A stretch of DNA of 40,397 nucleotides, from the IMG/VR virus record IMGVR_UViG_2541047757_000012. One strand, 5' to 3'. Origin of the DNA: a virus. Taxonomy: Duplodnaviria > Heunggongvirae > Uroviricota > Caudoviricetes. The translations under genes were made by a program, and so were the position numbers. The notes below the pieces were generated by a model, which was not told where the DNA came from, did not search any database, and saw nothing but the letters and a program-made list of their open reading frames with translations. Shown piece after piece: positions 33,117 to 38,052 of this stretch (positions are counted from its first letter, which is position 1; every line of letters starts with the position of its first letter).

Positions 33117-33190
33117 TTAACTGACTATCCGAAACTGAATTTATGCCAGCAATGGCAGGGATTCGCTCAACCTTAATTAAGGAGAAAAAC

Positions 33191-33466
33191 ATGATTACCA
33201 GTTATGAAGCCACTGTTGTTACTACTGATGACATTGTTCACGAAGTTACCCTGGAAGGAAAGCGTATTGGCTACGTGATTAAGACAGAAAATAAAGAAAC
33301 CCCATTCACTGTGGTTGATATCGACGGTCCATCAGGCAACGTTAAAACACTTAACGATGGTGTTAAAAAAATGTGTCTGGTGCACATAGGAAAGAATCTG
33401 CCCGCAGAAAAAAAAGCCGAATTTCTGGCAACTCTGATTGCAATGAAATTAAAAGGTGAAATCTGA
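33191..33466 (+). CDS. Hypothetical protein
   Basis: ATG at 33191 preceded by AAGGAGAAAAAC; 91 aa. Confidence 0.45.
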   Translation: MITSYEATVVTTDDIVHEVTLEGKRIGYVIKTENKETPFTVVDIDGPSGNVKTLNDGVKKMCLVHIGKNLPAEKKAEFLATLIAMKLKGEI

Positions 33467-33565: not shown

Positions 33566-36500
33566 ATGAGCACCGATAAACAAGTTTACCCACTGTATTA
33601 CGAAGCAAAAAATGACAAAGTAAGAAAACGTCTCGGTATTAAAGGCGGTTTCTACTGGGCTGAAGCGAAAAAATTATCCATTGCCATCTCCCGTGGTGCT
33701 GTTGCGATTGACGATGCTGGCTACGATGAAGATGACTTTAAAAAACCTGTTCGCGTCAATTTGCCCGTTGTTGATGACCTTCCACCAGAAGGCGTATTTG
33801 ATACGGAATTCTGCAACCGTTACGAAAAAGGCGGGGAAGATGGCATCACAATGGTATTTATCGCGCCCTCATCCTCTGCGCAGGACAAACCAGCCAGCAC
33901 TGACAATACCAATGTTAATGGCGAAGACATGACGGAGATTGAGGAGAATATGCTACTCCCGATTTCCGGTCAGGAGCTGCCCATTCGCTGGCTTGCTCAA
34001 CACGGCAGCGAAAAACCGGTAACGCACGTTTCACGCGACGAACTACAGGCATTACACATTGCACGAGCTGAAGAACTACCAGCAGTTACTGCCCTGGCTA
34101 TTTCGCACAAAACCAGCCTGCTCGACCCACTGGAACTTCGCGACCTCCACAAACTGGTTCGCGACACTGACAAAGTTTTCCCTAATCCCGTTAATTCCAG
34201 TCTGGGATTAATGACTGCTTTTTTCGAAGCATACCTGGACGCTGACTACACCGATCGCGGCCTGCTGACAAAAGAGTGGATGAAAGGAAATCGTGTTTCA
34301 CGCATCACCCGCACGGCTTCCGGTGCTAATGCTGGCGGTGGGAACAAAACCGATCGCAATCCGAATTTAGTACACACCCTCGACACACTGGATGTGGAGA
34401 TTGCAGCAGCCACACTTCCGATGGATTTTAATATTTATGAAATTCCGGGCAGCGTTTATCGTCGCGCAAAAGAAGTAGTCCTGAACAAAGAAAGTCCGTT
34501 CAAAGAATGGTCCGCAGCACTTCGTGCAACCCCGGGTATTCTGGACTATTCCCGCGCCGCTATTTTTGCACTTATCCGAAGCGCACACCCTGAATTTTAT
34601 CACTACCCGGGACGCCTTCAGGGGTATATCAACGCCTATTTGACGGAAACTGATCACGAGAACCCCAGCAAGGAAACTCTCACAGCTGCCCGGCATACGC
34701 CGGAAAAAGATATCCTGGAAGAAATTAACCGCGAGGTGGTTACTGAGCGTGAAACAGAAGAAGAAAAACCACAACCATCTGACGCAATGGCAGGTGAACA
34801 GGCAACAACTGAAACAATGGAACCGGATACAACTGAACATGGCCAGAACGCGCAGTCGCTGGATGCTCAGTCGCAGGTGAGTTCCGCTAACCAAGTAAAA
34901 GTCACCGCTGACGAAGTAAACAAAATTATGCAGGCAGCCAATATCAGCCAGCCTGACGCCGATAAGTTACTTGCTGTATCGCGTGGTGAATTTGTTGAGG
35001 GGATTAGCGACCCTAATGATCCGAAATGGGTCAAGGGGATCCAGACTCGCGATTCTGTGAACCAGAACCAGCATGAATCGGAACGGAACGACCAAAAAGC
35101 GGAACAAAACAGCCCAAATGCGCGACAAAATGAACCAGAAGCGCAACAGGAACCGGAAAAAGTCTGCGCCGCCTGCGGTCAGACTGACGGGGATAACTGC
35201 CCTGACTGTGGTGCGGTAATGGGCGACGCAACATACCAGGAAACATTCGATGAAGAGAATCAGGTTGAAGCTAAGGAAAATGATCCGGAGGAAATGGAAG
35301 GCGCTGAACATCCGCACAAGGAGAACGCTGGCAACCATCCGCATCACGATTACAGTGATGAAACTGGTGAAGCGTCAGCTCCTGTAGCAACTGAAATCAT
35401 GTGGCCGTCATATTTCGAGCCAGGCCGCTATGAAAACCTCCCGAACGAGGTTTATCACTCCGCCAACGGAATAAGCAGCACGATGCTGAAGGATGCCCGT
35501 ATCAGCCTGATGTATTACCACGGGCGGCACATTGCCGGAACTATTCCGAACGAGGAAAGTGATGCACTGCTGCGTGGGCGGATCATTCACAGTTATGTTC
35601 TGGAAACGGATAAATTCGCTGATGAATATGTCATTCCGGTACCGGTTCCTGAATATGTGGTTACTACTTCTAACGAACTGATCGCCATCATTAAAAAACA
35701 CAATGCCAGTCTGCCAGCACTGATGACACCAGAGCAGATGAAAGAGTGGATCGAAAGCTACAACAGCACTCTTATACAGCCACTGTCTGTAAGTGCTGGG
35801 GGCGAAGAAACAGGCATCCTTTACGGTTCGCTTCCGGTGGAATTTCGGCGTATTCCTGAGGGGGAAAAACATACAGCATCAGCAATGAAAGCCTGTATTA
35901 AAGAATACAACGCAAGCCTCCCTCCTCTGTTGAAAACCAGTGGAGCACGGGAGCAGCTTCTGGATCAAATTGAAACTGTAGACCCAGAACTGGCAAAAAA
36001 AGAACGTGCTAAATCTTTGCCTTACAACATCAGTGGCACAAAAGAGCAATTAACCGAAATCGCACGGAAAATTCGCCCGGAACTGGTGACACTGGAGGAC
36101 TGGCAAAAACGCCAGCAAGAAGAAAACGCCGGGAAAACGTTTATCAGTCTGGATATGTATGAACAGGCAAAAAATATTCACGCGGCACTGCAAAACAATA
36201 CCGATGCAGCAAGGCTACTCAACCACCCGGATCGCAAATCTGAAATCAGCTATTTCGGGTTTGATGAAGAAACCGGGCTGGAAATCAGGGTCCGTCCTGA
36301 TATCGAAATCCGGCTGCCATACGAAAGCATTTGCGCTGACGTGAAGTCAGTCAGCCTCGGTTATGTGCGGCAGGAACGACTTAAAGATCGCCTGCACCGT
36401 GAAATTATTGAGCGTGATTATCACCTCAGCGCCGCAATGTATTGCGATGTGGCAAACCTGGACAAATTTTTCTGGATCTTCGTCAACAAAGATGCTGGCT

Positions 36501-36691
36501 ATCACTGGGTGGCTGTCGTGGAAGCCTCGCAGGAACTCCTGGAACTTGGTCGACAGGAGTATCGCCGGACGCTACGCCAGATAAACGAAGCCCTAGAGAC
36601 AAACAACTGGCCAGCACCGATTACCGAAAGTTATACCGACGAATTAAACGACTTTGATCTTCGTCGTCTTGAAGCACTGCATCTGGCTTAA
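33566..36691 (+). CDS. RecE-like exonuclease with long N-terminal extension
   Basis: 1041 aa; C-terminal third has PD-(D/E)xK-like features (...RVRPDIEIRLPYESICADVKSV...); followed by a coupled annealing-protein gene; internal Cys4 cluster CAACGQTDGDNCPDCG and acidic low-complexity region. Confidence 0.55.
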   Translation: MSTDKQVYPLYYEAKNDKVRKRLGIKGGFYWAEAKKLSIAISRGAVAIDDAGYDEDDFKKPVRVNLPVVDDLPPEGVFDTEFCNRYEKGGEDGITMVFIAPSSSAQDKPASTDNTNVNGEDMTEIEENMLLPISGQELPIRWLAQHGSEKPVTHVSRDELQALHIARAEELPAVTALAISHKTSLLDPLELRDLHKLVRDTDKVFPNPVNSSLGLMTAFFEAYLDADYTDRGLLTKEWMKGNRVSRITRTASGANAGGGNKTDRNPNLVHTLDTLDVEIAAATLPMDFNIYEIPGSVYRRAKEVVLNKESPFKEWSAALRATPGILDYSRAAIFALIRSAHPEFYHYPGRLQGYINAYLTETDHENPSKETLTAARHTPEKDILEEINREVVTERETEEEKPQPSDAMAGEQATTETMEPDTTEHGQNAQSLDAQSQVSSANQVKVTADEVNKIMQAANISQPDADKLLAVSRGEFVEGISDPNDPKWVKGIQTRDSVNQNQHESERNDQKAEQNSPNARQNEPEAQQEPEKVCAACGQTDGDNCPDCGAVMGDATYQETFDEENQVEAKENDPEEMEGAEHPHKENAGNHPHHDYSDETGEASAPVATEIMWPSYFEPGRYENLPNEVYHSANGISSTMLKDARISLMYYHGRHIAGTIPNEESDALLRGRIIHSYVLETDKFADEYVIPVPVPEYVVTTSNELIAIIKKHNASLPALMTPEQMKEWIESYNSTLIQPLSVSAGGEETGILYGSLPVEFRRIPEGEKHTASAMKACIKEYNASLPPLLKTSGAREQLLDQIETVDPELAKKERAKSLPYNISGTKEQLTEIARKIRPELVTLEDWQKRQQEENAGKTFISLDMYEQAKNIHAALQNNTDAARLLNHPDRKSEISYFGFDEETGLEIRVRPDIEIRLPYESICADVKSVSLGYVRQERLKDRLHREIIERDYHLSAAMYCDVANLDKFFWIFVNKDAGYHWVAVVEASQELLELGRQEYRRTLRQINEALETNNWPAPITESYTDELNDFDLRRLEALHLA

Positions 36692-37794
36692 TGGAGAACC
36701 TGACCATGCAAAATACCAATATCATCACGACAGAGCAGACACCAAATACCATTTCTGCCAGTAACACTATTTTTAACGTTCAGGCGTTGACGCAACTTCA
36801 GGCAGTAGCCGGGTTGATGTCACAGGCCACCGTCACAGTTCCCGATCACCTTCGCGGAAATCCTGCCGATTGCATGGCAATCATCATGCAAGCCATGCAA
36901 TGGGGCATGAACCCCTACGCTGTGGCTCAGAAAACACACCTGGTAAACGGAGTTCTGGGTTATGAAGCACAACTGGTTAACGCTGTGATCTCTAGCTCAA
37001 GTGCAATTGTAGGCCGCTTCCATTACAAGTACGAGGGAGACTGGGAGAAATGCTCTCGCACCCGAGTGGAGACCGTTAAGAAAACGGCCAAAGGAGGCGG
37101 AATCTATGAGAAAAAAGAAACGATCCCATGTTGGACCAGTGAAGATGAGTATGGTCTCTCAGTTCGAGTTGGTGCAGTTCTTCGCGGTGAAAGTGAGATT
37201 ACCTGGGGAGAACCGGTGTTTCTTTCCAGCGTGATTACGCGTAATTCTCCTTTATGGACCTCAAACCCGAAACAACAGCTCGCCTATCTGGCGTTGAAAT
37301 ACTGGGCTCGCCTTTATTGTCCTGACGTCATCCTGGGCGTGTATACCCCGGACGAACTGGAAGAGCCACAGGAAAAAATCATCAATCCTGTGCCGGTACA
37401 GAATTATAGCGAGGTAAGCGAGCAGCGAACAGAAACCATCGAACAGCGTATTGACGAAGCGTGGATTGATGAATTCCGGCAGCGTGTCGAAAGCGCGGCC
37501 ACGACTGAGGAAACCACTGCATTACGCCAAGAGATAGAGGATCAGAAAAACCAGATCGGCGAATTCTTTGCCGAGCTTAAAGGAAAAGTGGTTCGGCGTC
37601 ATCACCGTCTCAATGCTATTGCCAGTATCGAGAAGATGATAAATGACCTTCCTTCATCAGGTGATCCAGAAGCAGAACAAAAATTTACTGCTCTGGAAAA
37701 TACGCTGAATGCTGCCCGGCCACATCTGGGTGAATTATATGAGGCGTATAAAACGACACTGACAGATATGAAACCAGAATATATCGGCTCCTGA
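36691..37794 (+). CDS. Putative single-strand annealing protein (RecT/Red-beta-like)
   Basis: 367-aa ORF coupled (TAATG overlap) to the exonuclease gene; assignment is mainly by position. Confidence 0.45.
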   Translation: MENLTMQNTNIITTEQTPNTISASNTIFNVQALTQLQAVAGLMSQATVTVPDHLRGNPADCMAIIMQAMQWGMNPYAVAQKTHLVNGVLGYEAQLVNAVISSSSAIVGRFHYKYEGDWEKCSRTRVETVKKTAKGGGIYEKKETIPCWTSEDEYGLSVRVGAVLRGESEITWGEPVFLSSVITRNSPLWTSNPKQQLAYLALKYWARLYCPDVILGVYTPDELEEPQEKIINPVPVQNYSEVSEQRTETIEQRIDEAWIDEFRQRVESAATTEETTALRQEIEDQKNQIGEFFAELKGKVVRRHHRLNAIASIEKMINDLPSSGDPEAEQKFTALENTLNAARPHLGELYEAYKTTLTDMKPEYIGS

Positions 37795-37857
37795 TATTGA
37801 CTTTGGCGGTGTAGCCTCACCGCCATCACAAAATTTTATTATATGAGAGAAAAGACA

Positions 37858-38052
37858 ATGCGGTATGAAAAAGTCAAACCATGCCCTTTTTGTGGTTGTC
37901 CATCAGTAACGGTGAAAGCCATTTCAGGATATTACCGCGCGAAGTGTAACGGATGCGAATCCCGAACCGGCTATGGTGGAAGTGAAAAAGAAGCACTCGA
38001 ACGATGGAATAAACGAACCACTGGAAATAATAATGGAGGTGTTCATGTATAA
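37858..38052 (+). CDS. ralR: Restriction alleviation protein Lar / RalR toxin
   Basis: 64 aa MRYEKVKPCPFCGCPSVTVKAISGYYRAKCNGCESRTGYGGSEKEALERWNKRTTGNNNGGVHV, closely matching Rac Lar/RalR as I recall it; SD GAGAG before the ATG at 37858. Confidence 0.8.
   Translation: MRYEKVKPCPFCGCPSVTVKAISGYYRAKCNGCESRTGYGGSEKEALERWNKRTTGNNNGGVHV

Follow-up and report, generated by a model that had tools for sequence, protein, structure and literature searches.

The long RecE of a Rac-like lambdoid prophage: a predicted canonical N-terminus and an insert-lengthened nuclease

The 1041-aa open reading frame at positions 33566..36691 is a known gene, recE (exodeoxyribonuclease VIII), and is a member of the described Gifsy-1-like RecE subtype. 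The window, that is, the whole stretch of DNA that was analysed, is a 40,397-nucleotide virus sequence of the Caudoviricetes (IMG/VR record IMGVR_UViG_2541047757_000012), and all features described here lie on its plus strand. Taken as a whole, the gene is very probably an ordinary recE of a Rac-like lambdoid prophage adjoining yebY, with the canonical N-terminus and a nuclease that has been lengthened by an insert. The protein consists of three separable modules: a folded region (aa 1-394), a disordered acidic linker containing a Cys knuckle (aa 395-610), and the nuclease.

The identity of the gene is supported by several independent assignments. The single ORF scores 1336.5 bits with the exonuclease VIII equivalog profile NCBIfam NF007259, the cutoff of which is 1269, and aa 1-1038 align with profile positions 1-873 of 877. 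Pfam recognises Exonuc_VIII in the N-terminal part and DUF3799 in the C-terminal part, and the ORF is assigned to PHROG 607. The RefSeq recE WP_000102207.1 is 96% identical, and its prophage setting, at yebY/copD, is the same. The early-left gene order, kilR-ydaE-(racC position)-recE-recT-ralR-xis-int, is that of the annotated Rac-like prophage, and membership in RecE is borne out by the recT gene downstream in the prophage early-left operon. RecE of the K-12 Rac prophage (866 aa; nuclease structure 3H4R) occupies the equivalent place in a prophage of this kind, with recT directly downstream. Some observations would fit a long ORF that does not make a functional protein, having arisen from faulty annotation or assembly or being a fusion that decays in a defective prophage: defectiveness is common among Rac-like prophages, the gene is split into ORFs of 285 and 711 aa at a related locus (L014), and numerous partial entries exist in the databases. 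However, the frame runs through without interruption, 83 complete E. coli genomes conserve the full-length form, none of the catalytic residues is missing, AlphaFold2 is confident for both folded parts, and an intact recT follows immediately. Conservation and the intact motifs speak against an artefact or a pseudogene, and the probability left to such a reading is very small.

The folded N-terminal region (aa 1-394, 33566..34747) is the standard RecE N-terminus and has an orphan fold. Judged by sequence, this region and the acidic linker that follows it are the canonical RecE N-terminus rather than an addition. Pfam Exonuc_VIII (PF06630) covers aa 52-189 (33719..34132) with E = 1.9e-37. In a domain census across an 81-sequence alignment, made by local phmmer mapping, the most widely conserved N-terminal core is aa 226-400 (34241..34765), a segment with a match in almost every one of the 80 long cluster representatives. 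BLASTP aligns aa 58 to about 750 with residues 50-734 of K-12 RecE at 53% identity, with some blocks above 90%, and the alignment spans both the Cys motif and the acidic tract. The two proteins share an N-terminus with Exonuc_VIII, an acidic tract and a CxxCx7CxxC motif, as well as a nuclease site composed of PD...DxK and His. They differ in that the first ~57 residues of the 1041-aa protein fall outside the BLASTP alignment and that its aa ~250-390 are far more divergent than the remainder. Copies of the N-terminal part with more than 91% identity are found in thousands of E. coli prophage proteins, and about 87% of complete E. coli genomes carry the RecE N-terminal module.

These comparisons change the picture given in an earlier note on this DNA, which attributed the unusual length of the protein to an N-terminal extension. 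This region of ~600 residues is also found in K-12 RecE, and the additional ~175 residues (1041 vs 866 aa) come mainly from an insertion in the nuclease domain. The note had named as its refutation an alignment that places the N-terminal region in a conserved, already characterised RecE domain. The region is conserved, as follows from the K-12 alignment, PF06630, the end-to-end match to NF007259 and the copies in thousands of proteins; it can be called characterised in a weak sense. Two 2023 reviews describe the RecE N-terminus as non-catalytic and of unknown or unclear function (PMC11611040, PMC11610958). In the AlphaFold2 model, aa 1-390 are confidently folded, with helical domains that come after a small alpha/beta unit (aa 1-100). 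A Foldseek search of the full-length model against the PDB gave matches confined to the nuclease domain and none for the N-terminal fold. The BFVD search gave no match below E = 0.3, and none for this fold either.

The linker (aa 395-610, 34748..35395) is Gln/Asn-rich, acidic and disordered as judged by composition and pLDDT. It contains 49 D/E and 15 K/R residues, which gives a net charge of -34 and a pI of 4.2. Disorder is predicted by AlphaFold2 at aa 395-447, 490-536 and 548-610, where the pLDDT is below 50, and a conserved island is present inside the linker at aa ~448-497. The 3' end of the linker is about 90% identical to K-12 RecE. The acidic low-complexity stretch noticed earlier is confirmed. 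Near the end of the linker lies a CxxCx7CxxC motif, CAACGQTDGDNCPDC (aa 534-548, 35165..35209), with the form CxxCG...CPDCG of rubredoxin-type knuckles. It holds four of the eight Cys residues of the protein within 15 residues, a pattern matched in 1 of 20,000 trials when eight Cys were placed at random. K-12 RecE has the motif too; among 149 cluster representatives only 14 carry it, and these include both nuclease types. The motif is possibly a small zinc site inside the disordered linker, although the AlphaFold2 model is of low confidence at this position (pLDDT <50). A Cys4 cluster had been proposed before, and the motif is indeed there, but its conservation is not strict: among 120 close relatives, taken across all architectures, 16 have Ser (14 cases) or Phe in place of the first Cys. 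The closest RefSeq RecE has Phe in this place. The first Cys is dispensable among close relatives.

The N-terminus is not tied to one kind of nuclease. The same 605-aa N-terminus, with more than 91% identity, occurs in proteins of 813 aa (DEDD), 890 aa and 1047 aa, and the 890-aa form joins it to a short RecE nuclease. DNA matches to these forms end at nt 1805-1821 of the gene, where the linker meets the nuclease. The 813-aa exonuclease of E. coli is 91-96% identical over its first ~605 residues and occupies the same early-left operon position, whereas its C-terminal part is an unrelated Rv2179c-like 3'-5' DEDD exonuclease (PF16473). In the aligned example of this form (L002), Ser stands at the first Cys position of the motif. 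No annealase gene was found near the 813-aa DEDD fusions, and Pfam gave no informative domain in ten N-terminus-bearing representatives that have no recognisable nuclease. Lambdoid Rec modules have already been described as containing RecE of the Rac and the Gifsy-1 type, DnaQ-like nucleases, and "RecE-2" proteins that lack a nuclease (PMC12315714). The structure predictions show the widespread RecE N-terminus as an orphan domain, folded with confidence, and a disordered acidic linker; together these are shuffled between nucleases of opposite polarity.

The earlier note suggested that the extra domains may bind other proteins, for example in anti-defence or in the modulation of host recombination. 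Separability of this kind, in which the N-terminus is fused to nucleases of either polarity or occurs without a nuclease ("RecE-2", PMC12315714), is also what one would see if the N-terminal ~600 aa served anti-defence or host modulation on their own, with the nuclease as no more than a carrier. The acidic tract could then mimic DNA and block RecBCD or restriction enzymes, or a host factor could be recruited by the folded domain. The DEDD fusions without a nearby annealase, the linker charge of -34 and the orphan fold are consistent with this idea; because the fold is an orphan, no function is excluded for the N-terminus. However, none of the three parts of the protein matched a PADLOC family at E <= 0.1, and no functional-family match was found. 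There is no experimental or structural sign of DNA mimicry, and the identity of the acidic tract is explained equally well by recent recombination as by selection. Enhancement of linear-linear recombination is the sole phenotype reported for the K-12 N-terminus (PMC11611040, PMC11610958). An autonomous module that is merely carried along is therefore very unlikely. We also regard as unlikely an autonomous, portable module that would engage a host target instead of serving recombination chemistry, either a DNA mimic or scaffold that neutralises RecBCD, a host nuclease or a defence system, or a tether of two DNA ends. Such a module, if real, would explain why the N-terminus is grafted onto 5'-3' or 3'-5' nucleases or carried without a nuclease. 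The reading we prefer remains that of a canonical RecE N-terminus.

By homology, aa 611-1041 (35396..36688) form a predicted RecE-type PD-(D/E)xK 5'-3' exonuclease domain of the Gifsy-1-like kind, with an intact His...PD...DxK site. The earlier recognition of a RecE-like protein with a C-terminal PD-(D/E)xK exonuclease is upheld by DUF3799, by NF007259 and by 3H4R in both sequence and fold. The domain is larger than the C-terminal third that had been suggested, as it makes up 41% of the protein. PDB 3H4R (RecE) is a sequence match and also the top Foldseek match (E = 6e-8), and AlphaFold2 folds the nuclease domain confidently. RecE of the Salmonella Gifsy-1 prophage is 52% identical to the domain at 98% coverage. 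Identity to the K-12 RecE nuclease is about 30% in one BLASTP-aligned core block (39/133), and the C-terminal segment is 26% identical to K-12 RecE in a MAFFT alignment. The BLASTP alignment and the translation place His675 (35588..35590) at K-12 His-652, the role of which is described in PMC11611040. The catalytic PD...DxK motif, RPD(912)...AD(925)VK(927) (36293..36346), is aligned with RPD...MDVK of K-12, and its R, P and D columns are invariant in the alignment. H675, D912, D925 and K927 thus align with the catalytic His652, PD and DxK of K-12 RecE.

K-12 RecE is an ATP-independent, processive 5'-3' dsDNA exonuclease that forms a toroidal tetramer (PMC11611040), and from it we infer, by analogy, the polarity, the oligomeric state and the RecT coupling of the 1041-aa RecE. 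As in the RecE family, the nuclease toroid would start at a double-strand end and digest the 5' strand, and the resulting 3' tail would be passed to the downstream RecT for single-strand annealing. Lambda Exo (Red-alpha) is among the Foldseek matches of the model. It belongs to the same PD-(D/E)xK superfamily and carries out 5'-3' resection for a partner annealase (PMC11611040). In contrast to the 1041-aa protein, lambda Exo is a single domain of 226 aa with no N-terminal region and has PD-ExK instead of PD-DxK; it is a trimer, as opposed to the tetramer of RecE (PMC11611040).

The feature that defines the Gifsy-1-like nuclease subtype is an all-helical insertion at aa ~688-861 (35627..36148), seen as a gap between two stretches that match 3H4R and modelled as helices of high pLDDT. 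Unlike K-12 RecE, the 1041-aa protein has here a net insertion of about 140 residues, which takes the place of the K-12 loop 665-698. In a global alignment with K-12 RecE, every large gap falls within K-12 residues 675-691. The insert carries three I-x-E-Y/H-N-A-x-L-P motifs as well as KTSGxRxxLL and SGTKxxL. The ~165-residue helical insert with I-x-E-Y/H-N-A-x-L-P and KTSGxR motifs that marks Gifsy-1-like RecE is present. Conservation extends over 12 aligned homologues, with 16 invariant columns and Lys/Arg among the conserved residues; the insert has a net charge of -3 and is not basic. Gifsy-1 RecE and the relatives from Klebsiella, Citrobacter and Ewingella share the insert-bearing nuclease, the insert motifs and a long RecT partner with the 1041-aa protein, but their N-terminal regions differ. 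In the Klebsiella (469 aa) and Ewingella (564 aa) relatives, a RecE-type N-terminus is absent and there is just a short leader. A DNA-binding motif of the SAP/HeH (helix-extended loop-helix) kind is a mere possibility for the insert. In two homologues the insert gave sub-threshold Pfam matches to SAP (E = 0.02-0.04), SAP_new25 (0.005), and Ish1 and Thymopoietin (0.2). The SAP/HeH profiles gave no match in the insert of the 1041-aa protein itself, and a PDB profile search with the insert returned nothing below E = 0.1. The K-12 loop 665-698 is disordered in the RecE crystal structure and lies at the rim of the DNA channel.

The partner of this nuclease is a long-type annealase of 367 aa (recT, 36691..37794), with Pfam RecT at aa 41-227. 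It is a different, longer type than the RecT of the K-12 Rac system, and BLASTP found no similarity between it and K-12 RecT. In Ewingella, the RecT encoded behind the insert-bearing nuclease shares 45% identity with this annealase. RecTs of 350-385 aa come directly after insert-bearing nucleases at five loci in four genera, E. coli, Ewingella and Salmonella Gifsy-1 included, and a short RecE nuclease is followed by a RecT of 269 aa. The Gifsy-1-like nuclease and the long RecT travel as one cassette. For the mining of RecET pairs for recombineering, it is relevant that a channel-rim insertion sets the long RecE forms apart from K-12 RecE and that such forms are co-inherited with a long RecT.

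The insertion may either grip the incoming duplex or dock the extended C-terminal domain of the cognate RecT. A docking platform for the long RecT, in place of a DNA-binding element, is a tentative proposal that we rate as somewhat less probable than its opposite. Co-occurrence of the insert with 350-385-aa RecTs is strict at the five loci, the 269-aa RecT goes with the short nuclease, and only aa 41-227 of the 367-aa partner belong to the Pfam RecT core. Exonuclease-annealase pairs are partner-specific, and the C-terminal domain of lambda Red-beta binds lambda Exo (PMC11611040). The lack of basic character in the insert is also in favour of docking, and a docking role, if true, would account for the partner specificity of the pair. 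However, this is a correlation, and linkage within a cassette yields the same pattern without contact. The equivalent K-12 loop is thought to capture dsDNA (PMC11611040), and the conserved Lys/Arg of the insert are also compatible with DNA contact. As for the start of recT, the ATG at 36706 is likelier than a start at 36691, and a GGAG at 36693-36696 precedes it.

The recE gene (33566..36691, plus strand) is a single ORF of 1041 aa; both the gene and its subtype are already known. Its product passes the curated NCBI equivalog model for exodeoxyribonuclease VIII over its full length (1336.5 bits vs. a cutoff of 1269). At both DNA and protein level it shares 96% identity with the annotated recE WP_000102207.1 (1047 aa). 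That recE sits in a Rac-like prophage of E. coli FDAARGOS_1059 at the same yebY/copD site as in the window, and kilR, ydaE, recT, ralR, xis and int flank both copies. On the 3' side of recE lie a RecT-family gene, a Lar/RalR-like gene, an excisionase, an integrase and chromosomal yebY. The C-terminus matches DUF3799, a PD-(D/E)xK family, and the solved RecE nuclease domain 3H4R. By homology, the product is a RecE-family nuclease that is paired with a RecT and whose active site is intact. Directly upstream, in the racC position, is a 107-aa ORF (33143-33466) with only a weak DUF2969 match (E = 0.02), whose annotated homologue is a shorter hypothetical protein. Just downstream of recT, a 69-aa ORF (37843-38052) matches Pfam Lar_restr_allev (restriction alleviation, RalR-like; E = 4e-14) and has its own CxxC...CxxC pairs.

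The Cys motif, acidic stretch and C-terminal PD-(D/E)xK match listed in the earlier note all exist, but its "unusual N-terminal extension" is wrong, because the region aligns with the N-terminus of K-12 RecE. BLASTP aligned residues 58-~750 with residues 50-734 of K-12 RecE (866 aa); identity is 53% overall and exceeds 90% in long blocks. The acidic tract and the CxxCx7CxxC motif fall inside this alignment. Pfam Exonuc_VIII matches aa 52-189 (plus strand). The alignment and the Pfam match show that K-12 RecE also has about 600 residues ahead of its nuclease domain. Judged by alignment, the N-terminal part is a canonical RecE N-terminus. Two 2023 reviews describe the function of this region as unknown or unclear; it is not needed for nuclease activity, and linear-linear recombination is enhanced with the full-length protein (PMC11611040, PMC11610958). 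The RecE N-terminus is non-catalytic and portable. The idea of the earlier note that it may be an anti-defence or host-modulator element found no positive support, and a search of the PADLOC models with the window RecE gave no match.

A full-length AlphaFold2 model, built on an 81-sequence alignment, had a mean pLDDT of 80.7, with values above 90 at aa ~11-100, ~131-380 and 621-1010. Disorder is predicted at aa 395-447, 490-536 and 548-610, and the Cys motif falls in the disordered part. An N-terminal-only model reached pLDDT 83, with only 36-57 at aa 104-180, which leaves aa 1-100 and ~190-385 as the parts of high confidence in the two models alike. A structure search with the full model returned nuclease-domain structures only (RecE 3H4R first, then MGME1, Cas4, lambda Exo and the RecB nuclease) and nothing for other parts.

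By alignment, the extra length of the window RecE stems from an insert in the nuclease domain. The stretches matching 3H4R (aa 628-739 and 891-1021) lie ~150 residues apart, all large gaps in a global alignment of nuclease domains fall within K-12 residues 675-691, and the anchor GKT(F/V)I(S/T) closes the insert on both sides. Together these show that window aa ~688-861 replace the K-12 loop 665-698, which is disordered in the RecE crystal structure. AlphaFold2 confidently predicts an all-helical unit, and homologues conserve three I-x-E-Y/H-N-A-x-L-P motifs, KTSGxRxxLL and SGTKxxL. Its resemblance to SAP/HeH consists of sub-threshold matches only. The catalytic residues are intact (His675; RPD(912)...AD(925)VK(927)). 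Over 98% of its length, the insert-bearing domain shares 52% identity with the Salmonella Gifsy-1 prophage RecE and with Klebsiella, Citrobacter and Ewingella proteins; this nuclease is a known, widespread subtype.

The adjoining recT (36691-37794, plus strand) encodes a long-type RecT of 362-367 aa, of which the Pfam RecT core spans only aa 41-227. The recE stop TAA (36689-36691) shares one base with the ATG at 36691. The likelier start, judging from the sequence, is the ATG at 36706, after GGAG at 36693-36696; in the closest annotated genome, RecT starts 12 nt past recE. BLASTP found no similarity between the window RecT and K-12 RecT. The window RecT is 45% identical to the RecT adjoining the insert-bearing nuclease in Ewingella. 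Every insert-bearing nuclease examined precedes a RecT of 350-385 aa (E. coli, Ewingella, Salmonella Gifsy-1 and a fifth locus). The Ewingella and Klebsiella insert-bearing proteins differ in being without the RecE N-terminus. The constant long RecT and this absence indicate that nuclease domain and annealase travel as a cassette.

By analogy with the family, a toroidal RecE oligomer would resect double-strand ends 5'-3', and the 3' tail would pass from RecE to RecT for single-strand annealing. From its position at the channel rim, the insert may help to hold the duplex or may dock the extended C-terminal part of the long RecT. Docking is favoured because the insert and the long RecT co-vary, and DNA contact is allowed by where the insert lies and by the Lys/Arg conserved in it.

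Three E. coli architectures share the first 605 residues at >91% identity. An 813-aa form joins them to a Rv2179c-like DEDD 3'-5' exonuclease, an 890-aa form to the K-12-type short nuclease with a 269-aa RecT, and a ~1047-aa form, the same as in the window, to the insert-bearing nuclease with the long RecT. At the DNA level, the other two forms stop matching at nt 1805-1821 of the gene, the linker/nuclease junction. Of 5426 complete E. coli genomes, 4736 match some part of the gene, and the full-length form is present in only 83. The proteins lacking the N-terminus and its sharing across architectures make it a separable accessory. The 813-aa DEDD fusions (L002 5001-7442; L007-L010 4001-6442) are very common E. 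coli prophage proteins with 91-96% identity in the RecE N-terminus, placed between dicB/DUF1482 and DUF4224/int; no annealase gene was found near them. At another related locus (L014 2598-5636), the RecE gene lies in two ORFs, 285 aa (Exonuc_VIII) and 711 aa (DUF3799), and is probably a frameshift or decaying copy.

Across 262 clusters formed at 50% identity, aa 226-400 is the most widely kept segment. The C-terminal partners are a short or long PD-(D/E)xK nuclease, a DEDD exonuclease, or nothing recognisable. This range fits the published account of "RecE-2" proteins and DnaQ-like nucleases in lambdoid Rec modules (PMC12315714). Seven cluster representatives of 670-790 aa (P0314, P0316, P0324, P0352, P0357, P0380, P0386) carry the RecE N-terminal core, corresponding to window aa 226-400, at ~residue 200-380; a Pfam search found no recognisable nuclease domain in them, and they are probably these "RecE-2" proteins.

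The acidic region (aa 395-610) has 49 Asp/Glu vs. 15 Lys/Arg (net -34, pI 4.2). The Cys motif, CAACGQTDGDNCPDC (aa 534-548, plus strand), holds four of the eight cysteines of the protein, and its K-12 version is CNACGQTGGDNCPDC. When eight Cys were placed at random, a CxxC-x(4-20)-CxxC pattern arose in 1 of 20,000 trials. The CxxCG...CPxCG signature resembles that of rubredoxin-type knuckles, and zinc binding is plausible from the sequence but apparently not essential. Support for the importance of the motif is mixed. K-12 RecE retains it, as do 14 of 149 representatives, which carry one or the other nuclease type; in 16 of 120 close relatives, among them the closest RefSeq RecE (L001), Ser or Phe takes the place of its first Cys. 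In L001 RecE, Phe replaces Cys534, and the acidic tract has a 7-residue insertion, TKQSEPV, relative to window 35150-35170 (aa ~526-534). The 3' part of the window acidic tract is closer to K-12 RecE than to this closest relative, which suggests mosaic recombination inside the low-complexity region.
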